Source: Pseudomonadota bacterium
GTDB taxonomy: Bacteria; Pseudomonadota; Alphaproteobacteria; CACIAM-22H2
Direction of reading: 5' to 3'
NCBI GenBank assembly: GCA_041178225.1
Contig: JBEGVV010000024.1
Coordinates: 7,676-71,675 of the forward strand
Length of the DNA stretch: 64,000 nt
Shown here: piece by piece, positions 18,264 to 41,822 of the stretch
Layout: each line of letters begins with the position of its first letter
Position numbering within the stretch: position 1 is the first letter of the stretch
Notes under the pieces: model-generated
The model's database searches: none
Told to the model about the DNA's origin: nothing
The model's input: only the letters and a program-made list of their open reading frames with translations
Position numbers and translations under genes: made by a program

Positions 18264-18271
<8 letters not shown>

Positions 18272-24275: not shown

Positions 24276-25168
24276 TGGACAGGCGGCCCGCGATCGAATG
24301 GCCGACGATCGCGCTCGCCGCGGCGCTGCACGCGGCATGGATCGCGCTGTGCCTCTTCCACGCGTCGCTCCCGTGGTGGGCCTTCGCGGCCTGCGCGGCG
24401 GTCGTCTCGGCCTGGTTCTCGTCGCTCCAGCACGAGGCGATCCACGGCCACCCGACGCGCAGCGCGACGTTCAACCACGCCATCGCCTGCGCGCCGCTCT
24501 GGATCTGGCTTCCCTATTCGCGCTACCGCGACACGCACCTGCTCCACCATCGCGACCACAGGCTGACCGACCCGCTCGACGACCCGGAGAGCCGCTACGT
24601 CACCCCGGAGGACTGGGCCGCGCGCGGGCCGATCGGCCGGGCCGCGCTCCGCGCGCAGTCGACGCTGCTCGGCCGCCTCGCGATCGGCCCGGCATGGAGC
24701 GCGGCATCCTTCCTGCGCGCCGAATGGGCGAACCGGCGCGACCCGCGCATCGCCCGCGCCTGGGCCGCGCACCTGGCGCTGCTCCTTCCCTTCCTCGCGT
24801 GGACGCTATGGGCCTGCGGCGTCCCGGCCTGGCTCTACGTCCTCGGCTTCGTTCAGGGCGGCGGCGCGCTCGCCATGCTGCGCTCCTTCGCGGAGCACCG
24901 CGCGCATGGCGACCCGGCCCGGCGCACCGCGGTCGTCGAGAACGCGACGCTGCTGGGCCCCGTCTTCCTGTTCAACAACCTGCACGCCACGCACCACCGC
25001 TGGCCCGGCGTCGCCTGGTACAGGCTGCCCGCGCTCCATCGCGCGCGCCGCGACGAGCTGCTCGCCGCCAATGGCGGCCTCGCCTATGACGGCTACGGCG
25101 AGGTCGCCCGCCGCTTCCTGCTGCGCGCGCACGACCAGCCGGAGCACCCGCTCGGCCGCGCCCCCTGA
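24275..25168 (+). CDS. Membrane fatty-acid-desaturase-family di-iron protein (desaturase/hydroxylase/CrtW-like)
   Basis: Three His boxes (QHEAIHGH, HHRDHRLTD, NNLHATHHRWPGVAWYRLP) with TM segments between them. The ATG overlaps the upstream stop. Confidence 0.7.
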   Translation: MDRRPAIEWPTIALAAALHAAWIALCLFHASLPWWAFAACAAVVSAWFSSLQHEAIHGHPTRSATFNHAIACAPLWIWLPYSRYRDTHLLHHRDHRLTDPLDDPESRYVTPEDWAARGPIGRAALRAQSTLLGRLAIGPAWSAASFLRAEWANRRDPRIARAWAAHLALLLPFLAWTLWACGVPAWLYVLGFVQGGGALAMLRSFAEHRAHGDPARRTAVVENATLLGPVFLFNNLHATHHRWPGVAWYRLPALHRARRDELLAANGGLAYDGYGEVARRFLLRAHDQPEHPLGRAP

Positions 25169-25171
25169 GCC

Positions 25172-26494
25172 TCAGCCCAGCGGGGACAGCAGCGTCTCCA
25201 CGACGCGGCGCGCGGCCGGCGCGCCCTCGATCCCCGCGATGTCGTCGCGCAGCGCGTCGTGGCGCGCACGGCCGATGCGCGGCACCAGCGACTCCTCGGC
25301 CTTGGCGAAGAGCTCGGCGTCCGACAGCGGGTCCTCGGGATCGCCGCGCGCCTCCGTGCGCGGGCTGGCGAGCACGGTGCCGTCGGCGAGCGTGACCTCG
25401 ACGATCGCGATGCGTCGCGCGGGGAAGAGCGCGTCGAGCTCGGGATCGGTCTCGGTCGTGATGCGATGCGCCATCGCCAGCGTCGCCGGGTCGCGCAGCC
25501 CCGTCGTCACGGTCTCGCCATCCACCTTGCCGTGGGCGAGCATGGCCGCGACCGGGAAGGGCAGCGCGTATTGCGCGGCGTCGGTGCCGTCGGGCTCGCG
25601 CACGTCGAGCCGCGCGGCCGCGTGGAAGGTGCGGATGCGCACCTTCTCGATCGCGCGTCCCGCCGCCTGCGCGCGCAGCGCCTGGGCCGCGGCGACGGAA
25701 GGCTGCGCCCAGCGGCAGATGGGCCAGGGCTTGAAGTACTGCTCGAGGATCCGCCAGCGCGTCCCGAGGTCGCCCCAGAACGCAGCCGCGTCGCCGCCCT
25801 CGACGCTGATCGCCGGCGCGCCCGTGAAGCCCGCCTGCGCCATCAGCGCCGCCGACAGCCCGACCTGCCCGCCATAGGTCGAGCCGTCCTTGACCATCGT
25901 GGGGAAGTCGATGCAGCGCATCATCTGGCTGCGCGGGCCATAGAACTCCGCGGTGCCCAGCGCATGGCGCGTCGTCTCGCGGTCGAAGCGCAGCGCGCGC
26001 GCGGCGACCGCGGCCGCGGCGAGCGCGTTCCACGCGCCGGAGGTGTGGTAGTCGGGGACCGTGGCGTGCAGCGCGATGCCCGCGCGCGTCGCGATCTCGT
26101 ACCCCATCACGAGCCGCACGAGGAACTCGGCGCCGTCGCGCGAGGGCGCCGCCTCGTCCTCGAGCGCGAGCAGCGCCGGGAGGACGACGACGCCGGCATG
26201 GCCCTTGGTCAGGCGATGCCCGTCATGCGCATCGTAGCCGTCGATCGTCGCGGCGCCGGCCATCGCCGCGCCCGGCAGCGACACGCGACGCCCGTCGAAG
26301 ATCATGCGCGCGCCGAGCCGCCCGCCCAGCTGGTGGGCCGCGGCGAAGTCGTGGACGATGCGCGACACCGGCGTCCCGCGTCCGCTGGCGGCGACGCCCG
26401 CGAGGTCGAGCAGGCACATCCGCGCGCGGTGCCGCACCTCCGCCGGAATGTCCGCCAGCGAGAGCCCATGGACGAAATCCAACCAGTCGCGCAT
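25172..26494 (-). CDS. MmgE/PrpD family protein (2-methylcitrate dehydratase-like)
   Basis: Starts MRDWLDFVHGLSLADIPAEVRHRARMCLLDLAGVAASG. About 440 aa with the typical MmgE/PrpD N-terminus. The 58-aa upstream extension is rejected. Confidence 0.75.
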   Translation of the reverse strand: MRDWLDFVHGLSLADIPAEVRHRARMCLLDLAGVAASGRGTPVSRIVHDFAAAHQLGGRLGARMIFDGRRVSLPGAAMAGAATIDGYDAHDGHRLTKGHAGVVVLPALLALEDEAAPSRDGAEFLVRLVMGYEIATRAGIALHATVPDYHTSGAWNALAAAAVAARALRFDRETTRHALGTAEFYGPRSQMMRCIDFPTMVKDGSTYGGQVGLSAALMAQAGFTGAPAISVEGGDAAAFWGDLGTRWRILEQYFKPWPICRWAQPSVAAAQALRAQAAGRAIEKVRIRTFHAAARLDVREPDGTDAAQYALPFPVAAMLAHGKVDGETVTTGLRDPATLAMAHRITTETDPELDALFPARRIAIVEVTLADGTVLASPRTEARGDPEDPLSDAELFAKAEESLVPRIGRARHDALRDDIAGIEGAPAARRVVETLLSPLG

Positions 26495-26513: not shown

Positions 26514-27647
26514 TCAGTTGTTCGACCTGATCGTGCCACCATCCACCCGCGTGCGGGCAAGCATCTCCTCGTCGAGCTCGAAGCCAAGCCCCGGCGCGTC
26601 GCCGAGGACGAGGTCGCCGCGCGCGTCGATGTCGAGCGGCGCCCTGAACATGAAGTCGCGCCGCTCACCGGTCCATTCCGGCGGGTCCCACGGGAACTCG
26701 AAGAAGCCCCCGTCGGTGGCGCCCGCCATCAGGTGGGCGTTGGCGGCCACGCCGATCCCGTTGCCCCAGCTATGCGGCGTGAAGGCGATCCCGTGCTCGC
26801 CGGCCATCGCCGCGACCTTGGCGAGGCCGGTGATGCCGCCGACCGAGACGACGTCGGGCTGGATGACGTCGAGGCAACCGCCGGCGACGAGGTCCCGCAG
26901 CTCGGCCATCTCGCGGTCGAGCTCGCCGCCCGCGATGCGCAGGTCGAGCTTCTCGCGCAGCAAGCGCATGCCCTCGCGGTCGGCGCGGTGGAGCGGCTCC
27001 TCCATCCAGTAGGCGCCGAGCCGCTCGAGCTCGCGCCCCACGACCAGCGCGTCCTTCACCGTCCAGGACGACATCGTGTCCCACGGGAAGCGCCAGCCCT
27101 GGTTGCAGTCGACCATCAGCTCGAGCCGGTCTCCGACGCGCGCGCGCACGGCCTCGAGCGCGGCGATGTCCGCGCGCCAGTCGCCGCGGCGGAAGCGGAT
27201 CTTCATGGCGCGGAAGCCGCGCGCGAGCGCGCGCTGCGCGAGGTCCGCCAGCGCGGGTCCGTCGCGCAGCGTGCCGCTCGAGGCATAGCAGGCGAGGCGG
27301 TCGCGCATCCCGCCGAGCAGCTTCCAGCAGGGCTGGCCGGCGACCTTGCCCGCGAGGTCCCACAGCGCGAGGTCGAGCGGCCAGCAGCGCCCGTAGTGGA
27401 AGGAGATGTGGGAGATCGCGCGGTAGTGGCGCTCCAGCCGCAGCGGGTCCTCGCCGAGGAACACGTGCTCGTGCCCCGCGAAGCCGAGCATGTAGTCGCC
27501 CGAGCCGATGCCCTCGTGCCCCTCGTCGGTGCGCACGCGCACGATCGTGGCGTCGAAGCGCGCGCGCGGCCGCGACGACCAGCTCGGGTGGAAGGGTGGA
27601 TCGAGCGGCAGCTGGTGCTGGGTGATCTCGATCGACGCGATCTTCAT
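26514..27647 (-). CDS. Enolase-superfamily protein (mandelate racemase / muconate lactonizing enzyme family)
   Basis: MKIASIEITQHQLPLDPPF... capping domain followed by a TIM-barrel with metal-ligand-like motifs (MVDCNQGW, EEPLHRAD, IAGGE). 377 aa. Confidence 0.75.
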   Translation of the reverse strand: MKIASIEITQHQLPLDPPFHPSWSSRPRARFDATIVRVRTDEGHEGIGSGDYMLGFAGHEHVFLGEDPLRLERHYRAISHISFHYGRCWPLDLALWDLAGKVAGQPCWKLLGGMRDRLACYASSGTLRDGPALADLAQRALARGFRAMKIRFRRGDWRADIAALEAVRARVGDRLELMVDCNQGWRFPWDTMSSWTVKDALVVGRELERLGAYWMEEPLHRADREGMRLLREKLDLRIAGGELDREMAELRDLVAGGCLDVIQPDVVSVGGITGLAKVAAMAGEHGIAFTPHSWGNGIGVAANAHLMAGATDGGFFEFPWDPPEWTGERRDFMFRAPLDIDARGDLVLGDAPGLGFELDEEMLARTRVDGGTIRSNN

Positions 27648-27660: not shown

Positions 27661-28794
27661 TCAGCGCTGCTCGAGCACGCGGCGCGCGATCGCCAGCAGG
27701 TCGTCGTCGGTGGTCGCGCGCCAGTTCGACGCGCGCATCGGGGCGTTGTCGGGCGCGCGCATCGCCGCCGCGAGGTCGGCCGGCGAGATGCCCGCGCACT
27801 CCTCCTCGAGCGGGACAGGCAGCCCGACCGCACGCAAGAGCCGCTCGAAACCGCGCGCGAAGCCCTCGCGGCCGGCGCCGAGCGCGACCGCGCAGGCGGC
27901 CCAGCGCCCATCGTCCCCGCGCTCGTTCCAAGCCGCGGTGGCGAGCATCGCGAGCCCGACCGCGCGGCCATGGTGGACCGGGCGCAGCGAGGCCAGGGCG
28001 TGGCCGACATTGTGCGCGATCGCCGTGCCGGCGTTGTCGATCGCGATCCCGGCCAGGGCGGCCGCGCGCTGCATGCCCTCGCGCGCCGCGAGGTCCGCGC
28101 CATCGGCGACGACGCGCTCGAGGTTCGCCGCGACGAGGCGGATCGCCTCGAGCGCGGCGACGCTGTTGGCCGCGCTCGCGTTGCGGTTGGTGGCCGCCTC
28201 GACGGCATGGACCAGGGCATCGATCCCGGTGGCCGCCGTGAGGAGGGGCGGCAGCCCGAGGGCGAGTTCCGGATCGAGGACGACGTCGTCGGCCTTGAGC
28301 GAATCGCCCCAGAGCCAGGTCTTCGCCTTGTCGGCGCGCGACAGCACGGCCGTGCGCGTCAGCTCGGCGCCGGTCCCCGCGGTGGTCGGGACGCAGATCG
28401 CGCCGAGGCGGCGCGCGGGAAGGTCGCGCGCGCAGAGCGCATAGGCCTCCGCCGGCTCCGCCGCCCCCGCGATTGCGGCTACCGCCTTGCCGAGGTCGAG
28501 GGCCGACCCGCCGCCGATCGCGACGACCGCCACCGCGCCCGTCGAGCGTGCGACCGCCGCGGCCGCGTCGGCGGCGGCCAGCGAGGGATCGGAGGAGAAG
28601 GCATCGAAGGACGCGCAGGGCACGCCGGCGGCGGCGATCGATGCGCGGGCCTCGCCGGCGATGCCCGTCGCCGCGAGGCCGGGATCGACCACCAGCAGCG
28701 CCGGCCCGCCGAAGCGCGCGGCAAGCTCGCCGATGCGCGCGCGCGATCCGGCGCCGCCGGCGATACGGGGCACGCGCGCGAGTTCGTAGGCCAT
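27661..28794 (-). CDS. Iron-containing (group III) alcohol dehydrogenase
   Basis: MAYELARVPRIAGGAGSRARIGEL..., then GGGSALDLGKAVA (NAD-binding) and HAVEAATN...AHNVGHAL (metal His motif). 377 aa. Confidence 0.75.
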   Translation of the reverse strand: MAYELARVPRIAGGAGSRARIGELAARFGGPALLVVDPGLAATGIAGEARASIAAAGVPCASFDAFSSDPSLAAADAAAAVARSTGAVAVVAIGGGSALDLGKAVAAIAGAAEPAEAYALCARDLPARRLGAICVPTTAGTGAELTRTAVLSRADKAKTWLWGDSLKADDVVLDPELALGLPPLLTAATGIDALVHAVEAATNRNASAANSVAALEAIRLVAANLERVVADGADLAAREGMQRAAALAGIAIDNAGTAIAHNVGHALASLRPVHHGRAVGLAMLATAAWNERGDDGRWAACAVALGAGREGFARGFERLLRAVGLPVPLEEECAGISPADLAAAMRAPDNAPMRASNWRATTDDDLLAIARRVLEQR

Positions 28795-28826
28795 GGGCCA
28801 TCCCTCCCGCGTCCGGCTATAGAGCG

Positions 28827-28863
28827 CGCCGCCGCATCCGGTCGAGCGCTTTTCGCGGCGGCG
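28827..28863. promoter_or_regulatory. Inverted repeat in the divergent ADH / DUF1289-DMGDH2 promoter region
   Basis: CGCCGCCGC-(N19, containing TTTTC)-GCGGCGGCG lies between the divergent starts at 28794 (minus) and 28885 (plus). Flanking ATCCGG direct repeats. Confidence 0.25.
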
Positions 28864-28884
28864 GAATCCGGCTAAGGCGGCGCG

Positions 28885-29100
28885 ATGGAACGCCCGCAAA
28901 GCCCCTGCATCCGCGTCTGCGTGCTCGACCCCGTGACCGACCAATGCATCGGCTGCGGGCGGCGGCGCATGGAGATCGCGGCATGGTCGCGCATGGACGA
29001 CGCGCAACGCGGCGACGTGCTCGCGGAATTGCCGGACCGGTTGCGCGCCATGACGCGGCGCGACGTGCGCGGGCGGCGCGCGGTGCCCCGCGCCCCCTAG
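28885..29100 (+). CDS. DUF1289 family small Fe-S (Cys-rich) protein
   Basis: 71 aa, SPCIRVCVLDPVTDQCIGCGRRRMEIAAW, matching the DUF1289 Cys spacing. First gene upstream of DMGDH2. Confidence 0.55.
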   Translation: MERPQSPCIRVCVLDPVTDQCIGCGRRRMEIAAWSRMDDAQRGDVLAELPDRLRAMTRRDVRGRRAVPRAP

Positions 29101-29195
29101 CCCCGCCACGGCCCCCGCGCGGCGTCGACCACGCCTTCCGCCGGCGCGCGTTTTCCCTCTAACCTCCCCCCGTCGGCATCCCCGGGGGAGCATCC

Positions 29196-31604
29196 ATGAA
29201 GTCCCATGCAAAGGCCGTCGTCATCGGTGGCGGCGTCGTCGGCGCGAGCGTCCTCTACCACCTGACCAAGGTGGGCTGGCGCGACGTCGTCCTGGTCGAG
29301 CGCTCGGAACTGACCTCTGGCTCGACCTGGCATGCCGCGGGAGGCATGCACACGATCAACGGCGACCCGAACGTCGCCAAGCTGCAGCAGTACACGATCA
29401 ACCTCTACAAGGAGATCGAGGAGATCTCCGGCGTGTCCTGCGGCGTGCACATCACCGGCGGGCTCATGCTCGCCGGCACCAGGACGCGCTACGACTGGCT
29501 GAAGATGGTCCATGCGCGCGGCCGCTACCTCGGCATGGACCTCGAGTTCGTCGACCTCGCCGAGGCCAAGCGCCTCTTCCCGCTCATGGAGACCAAGTAC
29601 TTCGTGGGCGCGCTCTACGACCCGATCGAGGGCCATGTCGACCCGTGGGGCGTCACCAACGCCTACGCCAAGGCCGCGACGATCCAGGGCGCGACGGTCG
29701 AGAAGCACAACCGCGTCGTCGAGCTGCTGCACCGGCCGGACGGCTCGTGGGACGTCGTGACCGAGAAGGGCACGATCCACGCCGAGCACGTCGTCAACGC
29801 GGGCGGCCTGTGGGCGCGCGAGGTCGGGCGCATGGTCGGCCTCGAGCTGCCCATCCTCGCGATGGAGCACCAGTACATCATCTCCGAGGAGATCCCCGAG
29901 GTCGCCGCCTCGGAGAAGGAGATGCTCCACATCGTCGATTCCGACGGCGAGATCTACATGCGCCAGGAAGGCAAGGGCATGCTCATGGGCACCTATGAGC
30001 GCGCCGGCGTGCCATGGTCCGAGCGCGACACGCCCTGGAGCTTCGGCCACGAGCTGCTCAACAACGACATCGACCGCATCGCCCCGTCGCTCGAGGTCGG
30101 CTTCCGCCACTATCCCGCGATCGAGAAGGCGGGCATCAAGAAGATCATCAACGGCCCCTTCACCTTCGCGCCGGACGGCAACCCGGTCATCGGCCCGGTC
30201 CGCGGCCTGAGGAACTACTGGGTCGCCTGCGGCGTGATGGCGGGGTTCAGCCAGGGCGGCGGCGTCGGGCTGTCGCTCGCGAACTGGATGGCGCACGGCG
30301 ATCCCGGCGCCGACATCTGGGGCATGGACGTCGCGCGCTTCGGCGACTGGGCGACGATGGCCTACACCAACGCGAAGGTGCGCGAGAACTACTCGCGGCG
30401 CTTCCGCATCCGCTTCCCCAACGAGGAACTGGCCGCGGCGCGCCCGCTCAAGACCACGCCCGTCTACGACCGCCTCAAGGCGGCCAACGCCGTCTTCGGC
30501 GACTACTGGGGCATGGAGCACGCGCTGTGGTTCGCGCCGCCGGGGACCGAGCCCGTCGAGGAGATCACCTTCCGGCGCTCGAACGCGCACCCGCATGTCG
30601 CGGCCGAGGTTAAGGCCGTGCGCGAGGGCGTCGGCCTCGTCGAGATCTCCAGCTACGGGAAGTTCGAGGTCGAGGGCCCCGGGGCGGAGGCGTGGCTGTC
30701 GCGCATGATGGCCAACCGCATGCCGGAGGCCGGGCGCATCGTGCTCACGCCGATGCTCAACGACCGCGGCAGGCTGATCGGCGACTTCACCATCGCGCGG
30801 ATCGCCGCCGACCGCTTCTTCCTCGTCGGCACGATGGCGGCGGAGCGCTTCTACCAGCGCTGGTTCGAGCGCCACATGCCGGCGACCGGCGTGGTCGCGC
30901 GTGCCTGCGCCAACGAATGGGTCGGGCTGTCGATCGCCGGCCCGCGCTCGCGCGCGCTGCTGCAGAAGCTCGTGCGCGACGACCTCTCGGCCTTCCCGTT
31001 CCTGTCCTTCCGCCGGATGGACATCGGCATGGCCCCGGCGATGGTCGGCCGCGTCTCCTTCACCGGCGACCTCGGCTACGAGATCTGGGTGAAGCCGGAG
31101 TACCAGCGCTACCTGCACGAACTGCTCCTCGATGCCGGGCGCGACGACGGCATCCGCCATTTCGGCGCGCGTGCCCTGCACTCCATGCGCCTCGAGAAGA
31201 GCTTCGGGACATGGGCGCGCGAGTACCGCCCGCTCTACGGGCCGGTCGAGGCCGGGCTCGGCCGCTTCGTGGCCTGGGACAAGCCGGACTTCGTCGGGCG
31301 CGCCGCGGCGCTGGAGGATCGGGCCAGCGGCGGCAAGCTGCGGCTCTGCGCCTTCCGGGTCGAGGCCGGCGACGCCGACGCCATCGGCGACGAGCCGATC
31401 TGGCATCGCGGCAAGCCGCTGGGCTGGGTGACGTCGGGCGGCTATGGCCACTCCGTGGGCGCGTCGCTCGCGCTCGGCTACGTGCCGCGGGACATCGCCT
31501 CGGAGGTCGACGGCTTCGAGGTCGAGATCATCGGCGAGCGCCGGCGCGCCACGCGCCTGCCCGAGCCCGCCTTCGACCCGAAGGGCACGAGGATGCGCGC
31601 ATGA
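29196..31604 (+). CDS. Dimethylglycine/sarcosine dehydrogenase-like flavoenzyme with C-terminal GcvT/THF domain, paralog 2
   Basis: 802 aa. Starts MKSHAKAVVIGGGVVGASVLYHL and contains SGSTWHAAGG (covalent-FAD His). About 65% identical to paralog 1 by eye. GGGGGAG SD upstream. The stop overlaps the MttB2 start (ATGA). Confidence 0.85.
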   Translation: MKSHAKAVVIGGGVVGASVLYHLTKVGWRDVVLVERSELTSGSTWHAAGGMHTINGDPNVAKLQQYTINLYKEIEEISGVSCGVHITGGLMLAGTRTRYDWLKMVHARGRYLGMDLEFVDLAEAKRLFPLMETKYFVGALYDPIEGHVDPWGVTNAYAKAATIQGATVEKHNRVVELLHRPDGSWDVVTEKGTIHAEHVVNAGGLWAREVGRMVGLELPILAMEHQYIISEEIPEVAASEKEMLHIVDSDGEIYMRQEGKGMLMGTYERAGVPWSERDTPWSFGHELLNNDIDRIAPSLEVGFRHYPAIEKAGIKKIINGPFTFAPDGNPVIGPVRGLRNYWVACGVMAGFSQGGGVGLSLANWMAHGDPGADIWGMDVARFGDWATMAYTNAKVRENYSRRFRIRFPNEELAAARPLKTTPVYDRLKAANAVFGDYWGMEHALWFAPPGTEPVEEITFRRSNAHPHVAAEVKAVREGVGLVEISSYGKFEVEGPGAEAWLSRMMANRMPEAGRIVLTPMLNDRGRLIGDFTIARIAADRFFLVGTMAAERFYQRWFERHMPATGVVARACANEWVGLSIAGPRSRALLQKLVRDDLSAFPFLSFRRMDIGMAPAMVGRVSFTGDLGYEIWVKPEYQRYLHELLLDAGRDDGIRHFGARALHSMRLEKSFGTWAREYRPLYGPVEAGLGRFVAWDKPDFVGRAAALEDRASGGKLRLCAFRVEAGDADAIGDEPIWHRGKPLGWVTSGGYGHSVGASLALGYVPRDIASEVDGFEVEIIGERRRATRLPEPAFDPKGTRMRA

Positions 31605-33136
31605 CCGAAAGGCGCGGGCGGCGCGAGAGGCAGGCGGCAGCCGGGCGCGACGCCGCGGCCGCGCAGCCCGCCGCGCAGCCGCGCCTGCCCTTCGCGCCGG
31701 TTCCGGCGGTCTCGGCGGACGAGCTGGAGGCCATCCACCTCGCCTCGCTCGGCATCCTCGAGGAGATCGGGATGGACATCCTCGACGAGGAGGCGCGCGG
31801 GATACTGCGCGCCGCCGGGGCGAGGACCGAGGCAGGGTCGCCGCGCGTGCGCATCGACCGCGGCGTGGTCGAGGCGGCGCTCGGCAAGGCGCCCCGCTCC
31901 TTCCGCCTGCACGCGCGCAACCCGGCCCGCGGGGTCGAGATCGGCGGCGACGCCGTGGCCTTCGGCTCGGTGGCGAGCGCGCCCAACGTCGCCGACCGCG
32001 CGCGCGGCCGCCGGCCGGGGAACCGCGCCGACTTCGACGACCTGCTGCGGCTGGTACAGGTCCTGCCCGCCGTCCATGTCGTCGCGGGATACCCGGTGGA
32101 ACCGGCCGACATCCACGCCTCGATCCGCCACCTCGACGCGCTGCTCGACATGCTGACGCTGACGGACAAGCCCATCCACGCCTACAGCCTGGGCAGGCAG
32201 CGCATCCTCGACGGCATCGAGATGGCGCGCATCGCGCGGGGCATCGACCGCGCCACGCTCGAGCGCGAGCCCTCCCTGTTCACGATCATCAACACCTCCT
32301 CGCCGCTGCGCCTCGACGAGCCGATGTGCATCGGCGTCATCGAGATGGCGCGCGCCAACCAGGCCGTCTGCGTCACTCCCTTCACCCTGGCAGGCGCGAT
32401 GGCGCCGGTGACGATCGCGGGCGCCGTGACGCAGCAGAACGCGGAGGCGCTGGCCGGGCTCGTCCTCGCGCAGGCCGCGCGCGAAGGCTCGCCCTTCGTC
32501 TATGGCGGCTTCACCTCGAACGTCGACATGAAGTCCGGCGCGCCGGCCTTCGGCACGCCGGAATACATGAAGGCGGCGCTGCTCGGCGGACAGCTCGCGC
32601 GCCGCTACGGCCTGCCCTACCGGTCCTCCAACGCCTGCGCCGCGAACACGCTCGACGCGCAGGCCGCCTACGAGAGCGTGTTCTCGCTCTGGGGCGCGAT
32701 CATGGGCGGCGCCAACCTGCTGATGCATGGCGCGGGATGGATGGAGGGCGGGCTGCAGGCCTCGTTCGAGAAGATGGTCCTCGACGCGGACCTGCTCGGC
32801 ATGGTGGCTGAGTTCCTCCGCCCGCTCGGCACCTCTCCAAGCGACCTCGCGGTCGACGCGATGCGCGAGGTCGGGCCCGGTGGCCATTTCTTCGGCTGCG
32901 CCCATACGCAGGCGCGCTATCGCACGGCGTTCTTCGCCCCGATGGTCTCCGACTGGCGCAACCACGAGGCCTGGCGCGAGGCCGGCTCCCCCGACGCCCA
33001 CGACGCGACCGGTCGCCTCTGGCGCGAGAAGCTCGCCGCCTATGCCGAGCCGCCGATGGATCCCGCGACCCGCGAGGAGCTCGAGGCCTTCGTCGCCCGC
33101 CGCAAGGCCGAGGGCGGCGTGAAGACGGATTTCTGA
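31601..33136 (+). CDS. MttB-superfamily quaternary-amine:corrinoid methyltransferase (non-Pyl), paralog 2
   Basis: 511 aa, uninterrupted. MTERRG...LPFAPVPAVSADELEAIHLASLGILEEIGMD. Conserved blocks VTPFTLAGAMAPVTIAGAVTQQNAEAL and GGFTSNVDMKSGAPAFGTPEY. Translationally coupled to DMGDH2. Confidence 0.85.
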   Translation: MTERRGRRERQAAAGRDAAAAQPAAQPRLPFAPVPAVSADELEAIHLASLGILEEIGMDILDEEARGILRAAGARTEAGSPRVRIDRGVVEAALGKAPRSFRLHARNPARGVEIGGDAVAFGSVASAPNVADRARGRRPGNRADFDDLLRLVQVLPAVHVVAGYPVEPADIHASIRHLDALLDMLTLTDKPIHAYSLGRQRILDGIEMARIARGIDRATLEREPSLFTIINTSSPLRLDEPMCIGVIEMARANQAVCVTPFTLAGAMAPVTIAGAVTQQNAEALAGLVLAQAAREGSPFVYGGFTSNVDMKSGAPAFGTPEYMKAALLGGQLARRYGLPYRSSNACAANTLDAQAAYESVFSLWGAIMGGANLLMHGAGWMEGGLQASFEKMVLDADLLGMVAEFLRPLGTSPSDLAVDAMREVGPGGHFFGCAHTQARYRTAFFAPMVSDWRNHEAWREAGSPDAHDATGRLWREKLAAYAEPPMDPATREELEAFVARRKAEGGVKTDF

Positions 33137-33139
33137 GCG

Positions 33140-34150
33140 ATGGTGCCGCGCATCGACGTCGCGCCGCTCCTCGGCCCGGCCAGCGCCGCGCGCGATGCCG
33201 TCGACGGCGCGGTGCTCGCCGCGGCCGCGGGCACGGGCTTCATGGTGGTGCGAGGCCTGCCGGCCGGTCCTCCCCTGGACGCCGCGACGCGCGCGCGGCT
33301 GCTCTCCATCCTCTCCCTGCCTGGCGAGGCCACCCGGCCGCTCTGGCGGCGCAAGTTCGAGCCGGCGAACCCGAACGTGTACCGGGGCTGGTTCCCGCTG
33401 CAGCATGGCGAGCGCACGCACAAGGAGGGGATCGACATCGGCCCCGACATCGCGCGACCCGGCGCCGTCGCCTCCGGCGACCCGCTGCGCGAGGCGACGC
33501 CGCTGCCGCGCGAGGACGCCCTGCCCGGCTGGCGCGCGGCCGCCTGCGCCTACTACCTCGCGATGGAGGAAGCCGGGCGCGCGCTGATGCGCTCGATCGC
33601 GCGCGGCCTCGGCCTCCAGGAGGGCCATTTCGATCCGTCCTTCGCCGACGGCATCTCGACGCTGCGCCTCATCCACTATCCCGCGCGCGCGCCAGCGAGC
33701 CTCGCGGGGATCGCCGGCATCGAGGCCGAGGGCGACGCACGCGCCCGCCACCTCGTCGGCGCGCCGCATGTCGATTCCGGCTTCGTGACGCTGCTCGCGC
33801 AGGACGGCGTGGACGGGCTCCAGGCACGCGCGCGCGACGGGGCCTGGATCGACGTTCCGCCCGAGGAAGGCGGCTTCGCCGTCAATTTCGGTGGCGTGCT
33901 CGAGCGCTGGACCGGCGGCCGCATCCGCGCGACGGAGCATCGCGTGGTCGGCGACGGCCGCGCCCGCATGTCCATCCCCTTCTTCCTCGAGCCCGCGGCG
34001 GAGGCGACGATCGCGCCCCTTCCCCTCGCGGGCTTCCCGTCCTTCGAGCCCTTCGCCTATGGCGACCACCTGTGGTCGGCGATGACGCGGTTCGTCGAGT
34101 TCCGCGGCCTCGAGGCCGCCCGCCTTCCCAGAGGAGTGAAAGCCGCATGA
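33140..34150 (+). CDS. 2-oxoglutarate/Fe(II)-dependent oxygenase, isopenicillin-N-synthase-like family
   Basis: 336 aa. DIOX_N-like N-terminus, then the HxD...H facial triad region (HVDSGFVTLLAQD ... TEHRV) and an Arg for 2OG binding. Starts 3 nt after the MttB2 stop, and its stop overlaps the MttB3 start. Confidence 0.75.
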   Translation: MVPRIDVAPLLGPASAARDAVDGAVLAAAAGTGFMVVRGLPAGPPLDAATRARLLSILSLPGEATRPLWRRKFEPANPNVYRGWFPLQHGERTHKEGIDIGPDIARPGAVASGDPLREATPLPREDALPGWRAAACAYYLAMEEAGRALMRSIARGLGLQEGHFDPSFADGISTLRLIHYPARAPASLAGIAGIEAEGDARARHLVGAPHVDSGFVTLLAQDGVDGLQARARDGAWIDVPPEEGGFAVNFGGVLERWTGGRIRATEHRVVGDGRARMSIPFFLEPAAEATIAPLPLAGFPSFEPFAYGDHLWSAMTRFVEFRGLEAARLPRGVKAA

Positions 34151-35706
34151 GCGACCAGACCGGGACCCAGGCACGCCGCGGCCGCGGCGGCGAGCGGCGG
34201 TCGCGAGACCGACGTGGTGGCGTGCTGTCGCGCCAGATGCCCTGGCGCGAGCTGACCAACCCGTACCGGCCGATGGAGATCCTCTCGGCCGACGAGCTGG
34301 AATCGATCCACCTCGCCTCGCTCGAGATCCTCGAGCGCATCGGCATCGTCGTGCAGTCGGAGCGCGCGCGGGTCCTGTGCCGCGCCGCCGGATGCGAGGT
34401 GATGCCGGACGGCGTGCGCGTGAGGTTCCCGCGCGAGGTGGTGATGGCGGCGATCGCGCACGCGCCCTCCCGCTTCCGCATGACGGCCCGCGCGGGGCAC
34501 CGCGACGTGACGATCGGCGGCAACTCGGTGGTGTTCACGCCCGTCTCGAGCGCGCCGAACTGCTCCGACATCGTCGGCGGCCGCCGCCCCGGCACCACCG
34601 CCGACTTCCGCGACCTCGTCAAGCTGGCGCAGGGCTTCAACGTCTTCCACATGCTGGCCGGATACCCGGTCGAGCCGATCGACATCCCCGTCCCGGTCCG
34701 CCACATGCAGGCCGTCCGGATGATGATCGAGCTGTCCGACAAGATACCCCGCATCTACGCGCACAGCGTCGAGCGCGTGCGCGACGTGCTCGAGCTCGTC
34801 CGCATCTCGCATGGCGTTTCGCGGGAGGAATTCGCCTCCGCGCATCGCTGCATCACCGTCATCAACACCAACTCGCCGCTGCAGCTCGACACGCCCATGG
34901 TCGAGGGCATCGTCGAGATGGCGGAATGCAACCAGCCCGTCGTGGTTACCCCGTTCACGCTCGCCGGGGCGATGGCGCCGGTCACGCTCGCCGGCGCGAT
35001 CGCGCAGCAGAACGCGGAGGCGCTCTCCGCGCTGGCCATCGCCCAGTTCGCGCGGCGCGGCGCCCCGGTCGTCTACGGCGCGTTCACCACGGCGGTGAAC
35101 ATGCGCACGGGCGCGCCGACCTTCGGCACCCCGGAATACGCCAAGGCGGCCCTGATCTCCGGCCAGCTCGCGCGGCGCTACCGCCTGCCCTACCGGTCCT
35201 CGGGCATCGCCACGGGCAACGCGCCCGACGCGCAGTCCGCGTGCGAGAGCATGATGTCCACCTGGTCCGCGGTGACGGGCGGGGTGAACATCCTGCACCA
35301 TGCGGCGGGATGGCTGGAGGGAGGCCTGACGGCCTCCTTCGAGAAGCTCGTCATCGACGTGGACGCGCTGCAGATGTTCTCCAGCTTCCTGCAGCCCGAG
35401 CGCGTGGACGCCGAGACGCTGGCGCTCGACACGATCGAGGAGGTGGGCCCGGGCGGGCATTTCTTCGCCGCCGCGCACACGATCGCGCGCTACGAGACGG
35501 CCTTCTTCGAGCCCCTGCTCTGGGACTGGCGCAACTACGAGACCTGGCGCCAGGACGGCGCGCTCGACGCGGCGCAGCGCGCGCACCGCGTGGCCCGCGA
35601 GGCCATCGACGCGCACGAGAGCCCGCCGCTCGACCAGGCGCGCGCCGAGGAGATGGACGCGTTCATCGCGCGGCGCACCGCCGAGGGCGGCGCGCCCGTC
35701 AACTGA
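34147..35706 (+). CDS. MttB-superfamily quaternary-amine:corrinoid methyltransferase (non-Pyl), paralog 3
   Basis: 519 aa, uninterrupted. MSDQTGTQ...PYRPMEILSADELESIHLASLEILERIGIV. Blocks VTPFTLAGAMAPVTLAGAIAQQNAEAL and GAFTTAVNMRTGAPTFGTPEY. Closest by eye to paralog 2. Confidence 0.85.
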   Translation: MSDQTGTQARRGRGGERRSRDRRGGVLSRQMPWRELTNPYRPMEILSADELESIHLASLEILERIGIVVQSERARVLCRAAGCEVMPDGVRVRFPREVVMAAIAHAPSRFRMTARAGHRDVTIGGNSVVFTPVSSAPNCSDIVGGRRPGTTADFRDLVKLAQGFNVFHMLAGYPVEPIDIPVPVRHMQAVRMMIELSDKIPRIYAHSVERVRDVLELVRISHGVSREEFASAHRCITVINTNSPLQLDTPMVEGIVEMAECNQPVVVTPFTLAGAMAPVTLAGAIAQQNAEALSALAIAQFARRGAPVVYGAFTTAVNMRTGAPTFGTPEYAKAALISGQLARRYRLPYRSSGIATGNAPDAQSACESMMSTWSAVTGGVNILHHAAGWLEGGLTASFEKLVIDVDALQMFSSFLQPERVDAETLALDTIEEVGPGGHFFAAAHTIARYETAFFEPLLWDWRNYETWRQDGALDAAQRAHRVAREAIDAHESPPLDQARAEEMDAFIARRTAEGGAPVN

Positions 35707-35719
35707 CCGGGGCAAGGCG

Positions 35720-36874
35720 ATGATCCGCGACCGCGAGGCGATCGACGCCTTCCTGGCGCAGGTCCGGCGCCTGGTGCGCGAGGTGATGGTGCCGCGCGAG
35801 GCCGAGGTCGTGGAGGCCGACGCCGTCCCCGCCGACATCGTCGCGCTGATGCGCGGGCTTGGCCTCTTCGGCATGTCGATCCCCGAGGCGCATGGCGGGC
35901 TCGGGATGACGATGGAGGAGGAGGCGCTGGTCGCGATGGAACTCGGCGGCGCGTCTCCCGCCTTCCGCTCGATGATCGGCACGAACAACGGGATCGGCAG
36001 CCAGGGCATCGTCATGGACGGCACCGAGGCGCAGAAGGCGCGCTGGCTGCCGCGCCTGGCGAGCGGCGAGGTGGTCGGCTCCTTCGCGCTGACCGAGCCC
36101 GATGCGGGCTCCGACGCCGGCAGCCTGCGCACGACCGCGCGCCGCGACGGCGATGGCTGGGTGCTCGACGGCACCAAGCGCTACATCACCAACGCCCCGC
36201 AGGCCGGCCTGTTCACGGTCTTCGCGCGCAGCGATCCCGGCCGCAAGGGCGCCTCGGGCGTCTCCGCCTTCCTGGTCGAGGCCGGGACGCCGGGCCTGAG
36301 GCTCGGCAGGCCCGACCGCAAGATGGGCCAGCGCGGCGCGCAGACCTGCGACGTCGTCCTCGACGGATGCCGCGTGCCGGGGGATGCGCTGCTCGGCGGA
36401 CGCGAGTGCGAGGGCTTCCGCACCGCGATGAAGGTGCTCGACCGCGGGCGCCTGCACATCTCCGCGGTCTGCGTCGGCGTCGCGACCCGGCTGCTGGACG
36501 ACGCGCTGCGCTTCGCGATGGAGCGCCGCCAGTTCGGGCAGCCGATCGCCGAGTTCCAGCTCGTGCAGGCGATGCTCGCGGACAGCCGCGCCGAGGTGCT
36601 CGCCGGCCGCGCGATGGTGCTGGAGACCGCGCGGCGCAAGGACGAGGGCGCCGATGTCGGCATCGACGCCTCGTGCTGCAAGCTCTTCTGCTCCGAGATG
36701 GTCGGGCGCGTCGCGGACCGCGCCGTCCAGGTCCATGGCGGCGCGGGCTACATGCAGGACTACGCGGTCGAGCGCCTCTACCGCGACGTCCGCCTGTTCC
36801 GGATCTACGAGGGCACGAGCGAGATCCAGCGCCTGGTCATCGCGCGCGGCATGATCCGCGACGCGAAGGGCTGA
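35720..36874 (+). CDS. Acyl-CoA dehydrogenase family protein
   Basis: 384 aa with canonical ACAD segments (FALTEPDAGSDAGSL, GTKRYITNA, C-terminal IYEGTSEIQRLVIAR). Last gene of the DMGDH2-MttB2-oxygenase-MttB3 operon. Confidence 0.85.
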   Translation: MIRDREAIDAFLAQVRRLVREVMVPREAEVVEADAVPADIVALMRGLGLFGMSIPEAHGGLGMTMEEEALVAMELGGASPAFRSMIGTNNGIGSQGIVMDGTEAQKARWLPRLASGEVVGSFALTEPDAGSDAGSLRTTARRDGDGWVLDGTKRYITNAPQAGLFTVFARSDPGRKGASGVSAFLVEAGTPGLRLGRPDRKMGQRGAQTCDVVLDGCRVPGDALLGGRECEGFRTAMKVLDRGRLHISAVCVGVATRLLDDALRFAMERRQFGQPIAEFQLVQAMLADSRAEVLAGRAMVLETARRKDEGADVGIDASCCKLFCSEMVGRVADRAVQVHGGAGYMQDYAVERLYRDVRLFRIYEGTSEIQRLVIARGMIRDAKG

Positions 36875-38970: not shown

Positions 38971-39750
38971 ATGAACGAAGGCGAGGTCAAGTCGGCGGCC
39001 CGGGTGCTCGAGATCCTCGAGTTCCTGACGCGCGGCGACGCGCCGGCGACCCTTGCCGACGTCGTCGCCGAGCTCGGCCTGCCGAAGTCCAGCGCGCACG
39101 CGCTGATGCGCACGCTGATGCTGCGCGGCTATGTCGAGCGCGACGAGGCGGAGCGCTACGCGCTGGCGCCAGCCTTCCGCGCCGGCGGCTGGATCGGCGG
39201 GCGCGACGGCCACCTCGCGGCGGTCGCGCGTCCCGTGATGGAGCAGCTGCGCCGCGACCTGCGCGAGACGGTCATCCTCGGCGCGCGCGGCGCCGGCGGC
39301 GACGTGCGCATCGTCTCGAAGCTCGTGAGCCCGGAGCAGGTCCGCTACGACACCGACACGCATGGCCTGCGCCCCGCCTATTGCACCGCGATGGGCCGCG
39401 TGCTCCTCGCCTGGTGGGACCAGCGCGCGCTCGACGGCTACCTCTCTCGGCTCCGGCCACGCGCCATCACGCCGCGCACCGTGACGGACGTCGCGCGCAT
39501 CCGCGCCCTGGTGGAGCGCGTGCGCGCCGAGGGCATCGCGGTGGTGGAGGAGGAATTCGCCATCGGGGGCTCCGGCGCGGCGGCGCCGGTCTTCGACGGC
39601 TCGGGGCGCCTGGTCGCGGCCCTCAACGTGGCGGCGGCGACGCGCCGCTTCCCGGGCGCGCGTCGGCGTATCGTCGACGCGCTCGCGCGTGGCGCGCGGC
39701 GCATCAGCCAGCGCCTCGGGCACCGCGACGGCATCGGCGACGCGGCATAG
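38971..39750 (+). CDS. IclR family transcriptional regulator
   Basis: N-terminal wHTH (VLEILEFLTRGDAPATLADVVAELGLPKSSAHALMRTLMLRGYVERD) plus a C-terminal IclR effector domain. Upstream of hyuA/hyuB. Confidence 0.8.
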   Translation: MNEGEVKSAARVLEILEFLTRGDAPATLADVVAELGLPKSSAHALMRTLMLRGYVERDEAERYALAPAFRAGGWIGGRDGHLAAVARPVMEQLRRDLRETVILGARGAGGDVRIVSKLVSPEQVRYDTDTHGLRPAYCTAMGRVLLAWWDQRALDGYLSRLRPRAITPRTVTDVARIRALVERVRAEGIAVVEEEFAIGGSGAAAPVFDGSGRLVAALNVAAATRRFPGARRRIVDALARGARRISQRLGHRDGIGDAA

Positions 39751-39775
39751 GCGGCAGGCAGGGGGACGACGGGGA

Positions 39776-41818
39776 ATGGCCTACAGGGTTGGCGTCGACA
39801 TAGGTGGGACCTTCGCGGATTTCTGCGCGCTCGACGAGGCGACGGGCGCGGTGCGCACGCTCAAGGTGCTGTCCACCCCGGCCGAGCCCGGCCGCGAGGT
39901 GATGCAGGGCATCTCCGAGCTGCAGCGGCGCTTCGGCATCGCGCCCTCCGACATCGCCTACTTCACCCACGGCACGACGGTCGGCATCAACTCGGTGATC
40001 CAGCGCAAGGGCGTTCGCCTGTGCCTGTTCACGACCGAGAACTTCATCGACGTGCTCGAGCTCGCCCGGCTGAAGATGCCGGACCCGTACCACCTGCTGT
40101 CGCGGCGTCCGGAGCCTCTCGTCACGCGCGACCGGGCGTTCGGCATCCGCGAGAGGATGCTCGCCGACGGCAGCGTCGACCTGCCACTCGACCACGCCTC
40201 GCTGCGCGACGCGCTGGATCGCGCGCTGGAGCGCGGCGCCGAGGGCATCGTGCTCTCCTTCCTGCATGCCTACGCCAATCCCGCCCACGAGCAGGAGGCC
40301 GCGCGCCTGATCGGCGCATGGGCTCCGGGCCTGCCGGTATTCCCCTCCTCGGCGGTGTGGCCGATCATCCGCGAATACGAGCGCACCTCGACCGCGGTCG
40401 TGCACGGCTACGTGCAGCCGCGCGTCGCCGCCTACATCGCCTCGCTCCAGGCCTCGCTGCGCAAGGCCGGCGTCGGCGCCGAGCCGATGATCACGAAGTC
40501 GAACGGCGGCGTGATGACGGCCGAGCTCGGCAAGAGCCAGTGCATCCAGATGCTGCTCTCGGGCACGGCCGCCGGCACGATGGGCGCGGCCTTCGTCGCG
40601 CGGCACGCCGACGCCCCGCGCGTGCTGGCGCTCGACGTCGGCGGCACGTCGGCTGACGTCTCGGTGATCGTCGACGGCCAGCCGAGCTACCGCTCGGGCG
40701 AGATGGTCGGCGAGTTCCCGATCTACATCCCGACGGTCTCGGTCACCTCGATCGGCGCGGGCGGCGGCTCGATCGCCGCGGTCGACGCCTTCGGCACGCT
40801 GACCGTCGGCCCGGAGAGCGCCGGCTCGACGCCGGGCCCCGCCTGCTACGGCCGCGGCGGCACGCGCCCGACGCTGACCGACGCCTTCGTGGTCTGCGGC
40901 TTCATGGGCCACAGCGAGCTCGGCTACAGCGCCGTCACCGTCGACCGCGCGAAGGCGGAGGCCGCGATGGAGCCGATCGCGAAGGCGCTTGGCCGCGACC
41001 TGCGCTCGGCCGCGGAGGCCGTGATCCAGGTCGCCGTGTCGGGGATGTATCGCGAGGTGAGCAAGCTCGCCGCGCACCAGGGCGTCGACCTGCGCGAGTT
41101 CAGCCTGCTCGCCTTCGGCGGCGGCGGCCCGATGACCGCCTGCCTGCTCGCGCGCGAGCTCGGCATGCCCTCGGTCCTCGTGCCCACCACGCCCGGCGTG
41201 CTCTCCGCGCTCGGCGGGCTGGTCGCGGACGTGAAGAACGACTTCATCCTCACGGTCTACGCGCCGCTCTCGGCCGAGACGCTGCCGCGCCTGCGCGAGG
41301 GATTCGCCGCGCTGGCGCGCGAGGCCGAGGCGTGGCTGCGCGACCGGCAGGGCCATCGCGGCGCGCCGCGCCTCGTGGCCTCCGCCGACCTGCGCTACCA
41401 CGGCCAGAGCTTCGAGATCGAGACGCCCATCGACCTCGCATGGATCGAGGCCGGGGACGTGGCGCGCATCAGGGACGCGTTCCATCGCGAGCACGAGCGC
41501 ATCTACGGCCACGCGGACCGCGAGGCGCGCGTCGATGCCGTCGCGCTGCGCATGATCGTCGTCGGCGAGAGCGCCAAGCCGTCCCTGCCGGTGCAGGAGC
41601 GGCGCGAGGGCCGCGCGGCGCCGCAGGCGGAGATCGAGGTCCTGCTGGACGGCGCGCCGCGGCGCGTGGCGCTCCACCGCCGCGCCGAACTCGTCCATGG
41701 CACGACCTTCGACGGCCCCTGCGTGATCGCGCAGGACGACACCACGACGATCGTGCCGGACGGCTATGCCGGCGCGGTCGACCGTTTCGGCAACCTCATC
41801 CTGGCGCGCGGGAGCTGA
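39776..41818 (+). CDS. hyuA: Hydantoinase/oxoprolinase family A subunit (ATP-dependent N-methylhydantoinase A / acetone-carboxylase beta-like)
   Basis: MAYRVGVDIGGTFADFCALDEATGAVRTLKVLSTP is the HyuA N-terminus, with ASKHA-fold segments throughout. About 680 aa. Confidence 0.85.
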   Translation: MAYRVGVDIGGTFADFCALDEATGAVRTLKVLSTPAEPGREVMQGISELQRRFGIAPSDIAYFTHGTTVGINSVIQRKGVRLCLFTTENFIDVLELARLKMPDPYHLLSRRPEPLVTRDRAFGIRERMLADGSVDLPLDHASLRDALDRALERGAEGIVLSFLHAYANPAHEQEAARLIGAWAPGLPVFPSSAVWPIIREYERTSTAVVHGYVQPRVAAYIASLQASLRKAGVGAEPMITKSNGGVMTAELGKSQCIQMLLSGTAAGTMGAAFVARHADAPRVLALDVGGTSADVSVIVDGQPSYRSGEMVGEFPIYIPTVSVTSIGAGGGSIAAVDAFGTLTVGPESAGSTPGPACYGRGGTRPTLTDAFVVCGFMGHSELGYSAVTVDRAKAEAAMEPIAKALGRDLRSAAEAVIQVAVSGMYREVSKLAAHQGVDLREFSLLAFGGGGPMTACLLARELGMPSVLVPTTPGVLSALGGLVADVKNDFILTVYAPLSAETLPRLREGFAALAREAEAWLRDRQGHRGAPRLVASADLRYHGQSFEIETPIDLAWIEAGDVARIRDAFHREHERIYGHADREARVDAVALRMIVVGESAKPSLPVQERREGRAAPQAEIEVLLDGAPRRVALHRRAELVHGTTFDGPCVIAQDDTTTIVPDGYAGAVDRFGNLILARGS

Positions 41819-41822
41819 GCCC

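Follow-up and report, generated by a model that had tools for sequence, protein, structure and literature searches.

Genetic work in Ruegeria pomeroyi and Phaeobacter inhibens has shown that aerobic demethylation of glycine betaine can begin with a corrinoid step (MtgBCD; PMC12478193; bioRxiv 10.64898/2025.12.19.695462). The 2025 demonstration came from R. pomeroyi, with support from P. inhibens; the route runs through MtgB, the corrinoid protein MtgC, MtgD, RamA and DUF1638 and then through DMGDH-type steps, and the R. pomeroyi corrinoid protein, RACo and DUF1638 components either increase on glycine betaine or are required for using it (PMC12478193). Aerobic Proteobacteria carry many MttB-family genes, and a single genome can have as many as seven paralogues of unassigned substrate (PMC12478193); the 2025 R. 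pomeroyi work left substrates open for the paralogues beyond the two induced by glycine betaine. Here we analyse a 64,000-nucleotide (nt) stretch of Pseudomonadota bacterium assembly GCA_041178225.1 (contig JBEGVV010000024.1, positions 7,676–71,675; hereafter the window), which carries an operon encoding, in order, a DUF1289 protein, a DMGDH-like flavoenzyme (DMGDH2), an MttB-family protein (MttB2), a 2-oxoglutarate (2OG)/Fe(II) oxygenase (Oxy), a further MttB-family protein (MttB3) and an acyl-CoA dehydrogenase (ACAD). Judged from its sequence, the locus is reasonably likely to serve the aerobic, MtgBCD-type catabolism of one or two quaternary amines that bear a carboxylate or are otherwise acidic, glycine betaine not among them.

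Operon structure and conservation

Genes were called from the third-position GC frame plot (GC3) and direct translation, and raw lists of open reading frames (ORFs) were crowded with spurious frames because the G+C content of the window is 72%. By this approach all six operon ORFs are uninterrupted and lie on the plus strand, at the coordinates that a first-pass annotation, made by a model from the letters alone, had given (Table 1), and Pfam agrees with the families it had named for all six products. The junctions are as it described: the stop of DMGDH2 and the start of MttB2 overlap in an ATGA (31601–31604), as do those of Oxy and MttB3 (34147–34150), while 3 nt separate MttB2 from Oxy (33137–33139) and 13 nt separate MttB3 from ACAD (35707–35719). 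The spacer between DUF1289 and DMGDH2 is 95 nt. Identical metagenome contigs with independent gene calls carry the same six products of 71, 802, 511, 336, 519 and 384 amino acids (aa). Shine-Dalgarno-like sequences stand upstream of DMGDH2 (GGGGGAG), MttB2 and MttB3, and the operon contains two terminator-like hairpins against 1.8 expected in shuffled sequence. The common strand, the overlaps or gaps of at most 13 nt between the last five genes and the lack of an excess of such hairpins indirectly suggest co-transcription of the operon. The operon is genuine and its arrangement goes beyond chance, because junction geometry and gene order recur in relatives and terminator-like hairpins are not in excess.

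For conservation, 25 oxygenase homologues were aligned, 80 genome loci (L numbers below) were retrieved and all window proteins were mapped onto these loci. The full order DMGDH2–MttB2–Oxy–MttB3 is present in L008 and L010, where the oxygenase is 70–74% identical and the other core proteins 81–88%, with consistent parts on the short contigs L007 and L009. DUF1289 lies upstream of DMGDH2 in L008, L009 and L010 and is also conserved in L089, and the divergent Fe-dependent alcohol dehydrogenase (Fe-ADH), enolase-superfamily and PrpD genes accompany the operon in L008 and L010. The geometry of the junctions (−4, +3, −4) recurs in L089 and L008; L087, whose contig begins inside the DMGDH gene, has the +3 and −4 junctions, and the 4-nt Oxy/MttB3 overlap is kept in L010, L087 and L089.

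The association of MttB2, DMGDH2 and Oxy also holds across differing gene orders. In a Methylobacteriaceae metagenome-assembled genome (MAG; L045) and an Alsobacter MAG (L031), the order Oxy–MttB2–DMGDH2(–MttB3) stands directly beside the corrinoid protein, with the enolase and Fe-ADH genes nearby; the latter two co-occur with MttB2 and DMGDH2 in L008, L010, L029, L031, L038 and L045. Many lake MAGs have a compact version, in which an importer with an SBP_bac_5 (SBP5) binding protein is divergent from Oxy–DMGDH2, the other strand carries MttB–DUF1638–corrinoid protein–M24, and RACo follows; Hyphomicrobiaceae MAGs retain the SBP5 importer divergent from Oxy–DMGDH1. The SBP_bac_5 binding protein is 72–75% identical and divergently adjacent to Oxy in many alphaproteobacterial loci. 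In 24 of the 80 loci overall, a DMGDH-type gene adjoins the oxygenase or lies one gene away, the SBP5 importer, an MttB, the corrinoid protein and RACo being frequent companions, and the oxygenase copies in such neighbourhoods form one clade, with two exceptions (L022 and L024). An MttB of Shinella sp. PSBB067 is 65% identical to MttB2 and has none of the other window genes nearby.

The sixth gene behaves differently from the other five. ACAD lies 3′ of MttB3 only in the close relatives L007, L087 and L089 (oxygenase at least 85% identical) and is absent from L010, L031 and L045; in L010 a convergent penicillin-amidase gene follows MttB3. The six-gene unit proposed in the first pass is therefore not kept in relatives. 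Since ACAD is limited to close relatives, the conserved unit, as read from these alignments, is the five genes DUF1289–DMGDH2–MttB2–Oxy–MttB3, and ACAD appears as a lineage-specific, recent addition.

Two MttB orthogroups without the aromatic pair

MttB2 and MttB3 are full-length members of PF06253 of the type that lacks pyrrolysine (non-Pyl), in keeping with their original placement in the MttB superfamily: residues 4–506 of MttB2 cover positions 2–500 of the 500-position MTTB profile, and residues 13–515 of MttB3 cover positions 3–500. Neither ORF contains an internal stop, with no in-frame UAG (pyrrolysine) codon, and scores of 302 and 329 bits against the Pyl-type model TIGR02369 fall under its cut-off of 525. 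No NCBIfam model for MtpB, MtcB, MtyB or MthB gave a match.

Together with MttB1, encoded upstream of the operon, these proteins are mutually 46–53% identical, and all three are 34–38% identical to Desulfitobacterium hafniense MtgB and Sinorhizobium meliloti 4YYC (34–36% for MttB2 and MttB3 against MtgB). While MttB2 and MttB3 share 53% identity, each is 64–87% identical to its own orthologues in other genomes (MttB2, 79–87% in L008–L010, L031 and L045; the MttB3 orthogroup was found in L008, L010 and L045), a pattern that indicates two maintained specificities. The two fall into different orthogroups in a neighbour-joining tree, and position 97 (MtgB numbering) lies in a signature conserved within each, VASA in MttB2 and VSSA in MttB3.

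The active-site residues bear on the substrates. In MtgB, the quaternary nitrogen of glycine betaine engages in cation–π interactions with Y97 and F356, a pair needed for normal Km and Vmax, and R312 and H348 bind the betaine carboxylate, R312 being conserved in MtcB, MtpB, MthB and MtyB and H348 less so (PMC13080624, a 2026 study). The aromatic pair is absent from MttB1, MttB2 and MttB3, which have Gly, Ala and Ser, respectively, at position 97 and Gly throughout at position 356. R312 and H348 are kept in all three and in all their orthologues. Retention of the Arg and His together with loss of the aromatic pair points to acidic betaines other than glycine betaine as the substrates of MttB2 and MttB3. 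A distinct alphaproteobacterial clade that has Tyr97 (S. meliloti 4YYC and L023) is not represented in the window.

An orphan oxygenase between the MttB genes

The iron triad of Oxy (H210-x-D212...H267) and its 2OG anchor (R276-x-S278) are invariant in the 25 homologues. Its AlphaFold model, with a predicted local distance difference test (pLDDT) score of 89.7, has the jelly-roll 2OG-oxygenase fold, and a fold search with this model returned generic relatives only, the best structural matches being PaIPNS (6JYV), thymine-7-hydroxylase, an ancestral ethylene-forming enzyme (EFE) and isopenicillin N synthase (IPNS). The first-pass label of an IPNS-type oxygenase is right as to family (PF03171, IPNS/EFE-like) and wrong if taken to mean IPNS proper. 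That enzyme is a 2OG-independent cyclase of δ-(L-α-aminoadipyl)-L-cysteinyl-D-valine (ACV), and the identification was ruled out by the identity of 25%, the RxS 2OG motif and a nearest relative, PaIPNS, that does not bind ACV.

PaIPNS is the best match in both structure and sequence (template-modelling score about 0.78, 30% identity). It is a Pseudomonas aeruginosa IPNS-family oxygenase with a crystal structure and no assigned substrate (PMC12329707). Oxy and PaIPNS are alike in fold and iron ligands and differ in that identity reaches just the 30% given above; because of this identity and the missing substrate assignment, no function is transferable to Oxy. By sequence comparison Oxy belongs to an orphan family related to PaIPNS, in which an alphaproteobacterial clade stands beside DMGDH-type genes. 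Against plasmids, Oxy had one match (48%), on a Roseovarius plasmid beside an ABC importer, which was uninformative.

As a separate observation, an Oxy homologue in L043, L052, L084 and L086 (MAGs of Steroidobacteraceae and other Gammaproteobacteria) is divergent beside a 442-aa protein resembling a DAO-type flavin adenine dinucleotide (FAD) oxidoreductase, which is weakly similar (24% over about 200 residues) to DMGDH's N-terminal half. This oxygenase may thus be paired with an amine-oxidising flavoenzyme outside the Alphaproteobacteria as well.

DMGDH2, corrinoid machinery and ACAD

DMGDH2 matches rat and human DMGDH over its full length (~610 bits), and the same four-domain architecture, a DAO FAD oxidoreductase domain with FAO_M and the folate-binding GCV_T and GCV_T_C, is found in DMGDH2 and in its paralogue DMGDH1. 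Residues 39–50 of DMGDH2 read LTSGSTWHAAGG and the motif SGSTWHAAG is present, in which S-T-W-H-A-A-G is the motif whose His covalently attaches FAD in DMGDH. On these features DMGDH2 is a predicted dimethylglycine/sarcosine-dehydrogenase-type flavoenzyme with a folate-binding aminomethyltransferase domain.

The corrinoid protein, RACo and DUF1638 are encoded 17–20 kb upstream of the operon. The corrinoid protein and RACo had both been named in the first pass and are borne out by their Pfam domains (Table 1); on the NCBIfam MtgC models the corrinoid protein scores 180–206 bits, below the cut-offs.

ACAD is of the short-chain type and generic against PDB. Its best NCBIfam match is acryloyl-CoA reductase, at 329 bits against a cut-off of 640, and its C-terminal YEG motif with the catalytic Glu is present (IYEGTSEIQ). 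Among the window genes scanned there is no CoA ligase, CoA transferase, hydratase or thiolase. The suggestion that the carbon skeleton is processed as a CoA ester, with carnitine or gamma-butyrobetaine as substrates, accordingly has little support, because ACAD occurs in close relatives only and neither a CoA ligase nor a CoA transferase was found.

Upstream region and regulatory signals

A divergent intergenic region (28795–28884) separates Fe-ADH, on the minus strand, from DUF1289 and is a probable promoter/operator. It contains a motif, GCTATAGAGCGC (28816–28827) ... GTCGAGCGCTTTTCG (28841–28855), that is conserved in L089, L008 and L009, and relatives that keep it have an oxygenase 73–85% identical to Oxy. 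No repeat of the motif above chance was found elsewhere in the window, including upstream of its other operons, and so there is no evidence of a shared operator. The motif (28816–28855) is a possible operator, and no regulator gene adjoins it. A promoter scan found no sigma-70 consensus or promoter, and Rfam models, run across the entire window, gave no match to a riboswitch, cobalamin included, or to any other RNA family. A candidate attenuator in the DUF1289–DMGDH2 spacer was dropped since it folds no better than shuffled sequence (z 0.59).

Genomic setting

The operon sits within a ~30-kb methylated-amine island spanning about 8.3–36.9 kb of the window (Table 1). A protein identical to MttB2 is encoded on at least 23 metagenome contigs of ENA and JGI, and among genome records the nearest, from Lakes Tanganyika and Mendota, are MAGs of unclassified Alphaproteobacteria; the host is therefore an uncultured, high-GC and probably freshwater alphaproteobacterium.

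Table 1 Genes of the operon and of the surrounding island (window coordinates)
Feature	Coordinates	Strand	Basis
DUF1289, small Cys-rich protein, 71 aa, first gene of operon	28885–29100	+	Pfam PF06945, 1.2e-18
DMGDH2, 802 aa	29196–31604	+	Pfam DAO + FAO_M + GCV_T + GCV_T_C
MttB2, 511 aa	31601–33136	+	Pfam MTTB, 4.5e-196
Oxy, 2OG/Fe(II) oxygenase, 336 aa	33140–34150	+	Pfam PF03171 (2OG-FeII_Oxy), 3e-18
MttB3, 519 aa	34147–35706	+	Pfam MTTB, 1.3e-190
Short-chain-type ACAD, 384 aa	35720–36874	+	Pfam PF02771, PF02770, PF00441
RACo/RamA-type reductive activase	8321–10348	-	Pfam RACo C-terminal, middle and linker domains + Fer2
PF13769 protein	10363–10671	-	Pfam
DUF1638	10659–11297	-	Pfam
Stand-alone corrinoid protein	11294–11989	-	Pfam PF02310 (B12-binding) + PF02607 (B12-binding_2)
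DMGDH1, second DMGDH paralogue	12156–14567	+	Pfam, all four DMGDH domains
GFA-domain protein	14545–14991	+	Pfam
DddP-like M24 metalloenzyme	14988–16238	+	Pfam, NCBIfam, PDB match
Peptide/opine-type ABC importer, fused ATPase	16259–18271	-	Pfam
Peptide/opine-type ABC importer, two permeases	18264–20035	-	Pfam
SBP_bac_5 binding protein of peptide/opine-type importer	20118–21788	-	Pfam
MttB1	21922–23463	+	Pfam; overlap-coupled to next two genes
Cytoplasmic PhnD-like PF12974 protein	23460–24275	+	Pfam
FA_desaturase-family membrane protein	24275–25168	+	Pfam
MmgE/PrpD-family protein	25172–26494	-	Pfam; divergent from operon
Enolase-superfamily MR/MLE protein	26514–27647	-	Pfam; divergent from operon
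Fe-ADH	27661–28794	-	Pfam; divergent from operon

The Fe-ADH, enolase-superfamily and MmgE/PrpD genes are candidates for the enzymes that act on the carbon skeleton. Best named PDB matches of the enolase-superfamily protein are acid-sugar dehydratases, at about 125–141 bits.

The M24 protein matches DddP (4B28) over its full length at 353 bits, with the DxD, D, H, E, E metal-ligand positions aligned, and scores 418.9 bits on the NCBIfam DddP model, under the curated equivalog cut-off of 600. In the lake MAGs L011, L013 and L015–L020 the genes for it, the corrinoid protein, DUF1638 and an MttB run together on one strand, which suggests a DddP-like enzyme partnered with a corrinoid methyltransferase system. 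Between DMGDH1 and M24 lies the GFA-domain gene, of the glutathione-dependent formaldehyde-activating family and kept in lake MAG clusters; it fits a pathway step that releases free formaldehyde.

The run of MttB1, PhnD-like and FA_desaturase genes is kept in L001–L006, L010 and L089. No signal peptide is evident in the sequence of the PhnD-like protein, a more distant homologue of which (39–41% identical) is also encoded 3′ of DMGDH1 in lake MAGs, and the FA_desaturase-family membrane di-iron protein carries three His boxes. Downstream of the operon, the regions 38971–43835 and 50065–59132 contain an IclR regulator, hydantoinase/oxoprolinase A and B, an SDR, a DMFase-beta-like protein, an amidase, two Asp/Glu-racemase-family proteins and three further SBP_bac_5 importers, and look like a broad nitrogen-compound catabolic island.

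Proposed pathway and alternative explanations

Under the favoured reading, that of a catabolic operon for acidic betaines other than glycine betaine, a betaine would be imported, probably by the SBP_bac_5 ABC system. MttB2 and MttB3 would each move one N-methyl group from their own betaine to the Co(I) of the shared corrinoid protein, which RACo and DUF1638 would hold reduced, and an MtgD equivalent, with no gene found among the window genes scanned, would hand the methyl group on to tetrahydrofolate (THF). DMGDH2, and perhaps DMGDH1, would then take one more N-methyl group oxidatively off the tertiary amine so formed, THF capturing it, while Oxy would act on the same carbon–nitrogen skeleton, either by hydroxylation or by removal of a methyl group as formaldehyde. 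Finally, the divergent Fe-ADH, enolase-superfamily and PrpD enzymes would process the demethylated skeleton; ACAD, as a recent lineage-specific addition, would stand outside these core steps.

A more specific version of this proposal is held more tentatively and is possible without being the better bet: the DUF1289–DMGDH2–MttB2–Oxy–MttB3 core, with Fe-ADH, enolase, PrpD and M24, might serve a betaine class new to aerobic corrinoid demethylation, with Oxy hydroxylating the tertiary or secondary amine or N-demethylating it to give formaldehyde. Candidate substrates would be a beta- or gamma-amino-acid betaine, or a hydroxylatable alpha-amino-acid betaine. If true, an orphan oxygenase family that is widespread would gain its first function, and two MttB orthogroups of Alphaproteobacteria their first substrates.

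Several points weigh against the favoured reading. Gly stands at position 356 in every alphaproteobacterial sequence examined, the Tyr97-bearing 4YYC group included, so the aromatic-pair criterion may transfer imperfectly; this residue criterion comes from Desulfitobacterium MtgB and may not hold for the proteobacterial MtgBs that have genetic or proteomic support (SPO2108, SPO2134 and PGA1_RS07270). As a family, Oxy is not specific to this pathway: Gammaproteobacteria and Dongiaceae have homologues 58–62% identical to it whose surroundings contain no methylamine genes, their neighbours as read from sequence (DinB-like, DUF1127, Nnr-like, GGDEF/EAL, LysR and LysE) offering no consistent functional context, and the link of Oxy to the pathway could be clade-specific or incidental. 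No pterin-binding methyl-corrinoid:THF methyltransferase (MtgD) was found among the genes scanned in the 64-kb window, although this is not decisive because the R. pomeroyi MtgD gene is also far from mtgB and mtgC (PMC12478193). The organism is also uncultured.

One alternative is ordinary glycine betaine catabolism, with MttB2 and MttB3 as MtgB isozymes that make dimethylglycine, DMGDH2 and DMGDH1 as dimethylglycine and sarcosine dehydrogenases, and Oxy and ACAD as passengers. The full-length match of DMGDH2 to the mammalian enzyme, corrinoid machinery of the same type, the conserved Arg312 and His348 and the co-induction of two MttB paralogues on glycine betaine in R. pomeroyi speak for it. 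We nevertheless consider it unlikely, since none of the three MttBs in the window has the Tyr97/Phe356 pair, the alphaproteobacterial clade that keeps Tyr97 is missing from the window, MttB2 and MttB3 are maintained as separate orthogroups, and the oxygenase, enolase and Fe-ADH genes are co-conserved yet unneeded for glycine betaine breakdown. Another alternative is a mosaic, in which independent methylated-amine and acyl-CoA functions within a catabolic island are co-transcribed and share neither pathway nor substrate. In its favour, ACAD is lineage-specific, as are the MFS, SDR and IclR genes downstream, the window is rich in unrelated genes for nitrogen compounds (hydantoinases, an amidase, a DMFase-like gene and racemases), and homologues of the oxygenase elsewhere have unrelated neighbours; but DMGDH2, MttB2, Oxy and, in most cases, MttB3 are still found together after rearrangements into at least three gene orders in several families, and the stop/start codon overlaps are conserved, which makes the mosaic quite unlikely.

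Very unlikely, in our view, is that the methyl donors are sulfonium or other onium compounds of the dimethylsulfoniopropionate (DMSP) type, M24 cleaving or preparing the substrate and ACAD handling acryloyl- or propionyl-CoA. The resemblance of M24 to genuine DddP, the freshwater runs that join its gene to corrinoid protein, DUF1638 and MttB, and the acryloyl-CoA reductase match of ACAD all speak for this idea. Set against them, the DddP score stays below the curated cut-off, two DMGDH-type amine dehydrogenases, which act on C–N bonds, are members of the core module, ACAD is not conserved and the window has no acrylate-CoA ligase gene; moreover, the characterised non-Pyl MttBs all use a quaternary amine, as is established knowledge (PMC13080624).

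The locus is a test bed for what aerobic MttB paralogues demethylate, for what the PaIPNS-like oxygenase family does and for the reach of vitamin B12 dependence in methylated-nitrogen turnover in fresh water and soil. Because the general scheme is already known, its value lies in assigning functions to orphan enzymes and not in a new principle.

Comparison with known systems

The first-pass annotation had proposed a corrinoid step followed by flavin/THF demethylation and knew of no described pathway with this gene combination. Its scheme agrees with the published aerobic MtgBCD route and, with the general scheme published in 2025, is no longer new; for the gene set itself, searches of the literature on MttB with DddP, IPNS-family oxygenase, DMGDH or Alphaproteobacteria yielded no description. 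What was not found described is the arrangement of two MttB orthogroups, apparently not for glycine betaine, that flank an orphan oxygenase and are coupled to a DMGDH paralogue.

The MtgBCD systems found in R. pomeroyi strain DSS-3 and in P. inhibens and the present locus have in common a non-Pyl MttB, a stand-alone corrinoid protein, RamA/RACo, DUF1638, DMGDH-type flavoenzymes and an aerobic alphaproteobacterial host, and in other marine genomes the MtgBCD genes are clustered with the later demethylation steps. The locus differs in having three MttBs without the aromatic pair, two of which flank the orphan 2OG oxygenase in an operon with a DMGDH paralogue, and in that no MtgD or MtgE gene was found in the window. 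MtpB (proline betaine), MtcB (carnitine), MtyB (gamma-butyrobetaine) and MthB of Eubacterium limosum and MtgB of D. hafniense (PMC8604678, PMC13080624) belong to the same superfamily and fold as MttB2 and MttB3, and share with the locus Arg312/His348 (His348 less so) and the use of several paralogues per corrinoid protein. Unlike the locus, these systems are anaerobic, feed the Wood-Ljungdahl pathway and are without flavoenzyme or oxygenase partners.

An analogous module in a culturable host is found on the S. meliloti megaplasmid (L093; plasmid pB, NZ_CP141214.1 500817–526244), where a DMGDH-like gene (45% identical) and LysR are divergent from MttB (50%), GlxA, M24 (40%) and an isochorismatase-family gene, together with a glycine-betaine-type ABC transporter, an MR/MLE enolase-superfamily gene and an Ldh-family oxidoreductase; a Rieske oxygenase pair lies nearby. 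A plasmid module of another culturable rhizobium (Mesorhizobium sp. WSM1497, pWSM1497) combines MttB, an Ldh-family gene, a 2OG oxygenase, a Rieske oxygenase and a binding protein.

Lastly, Zhao et al. (2013) and Kumar et al. (2014) reportedly described an alphaproteobacterial pathway for proline betaine and hydroxyproline betaine with the enolase-superfamily epimerase HpbD. It is said to proceed by stepwise N-demethylation, the quaternary methyl first and then an FAD enzyme, with a dedicated ABC importer, and its first methyl is reportedly removed by a Rieske oxygenase and not by a corrinoid system. Assignment of the enolase-superfamily gene of the window as an HpbD-type epimerase was set aside, as no HpbD entry appeared among the PDB matches listed for it, which are weak. 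The HpbD-type pathway and the locus, as read here, are alike in an enolase-superfamily enzyme, stepwise N-demethylation and an ABC importer, and differ in the first step, which is of the Rieske type in the former and would be corrinoid-dependent in the latter.

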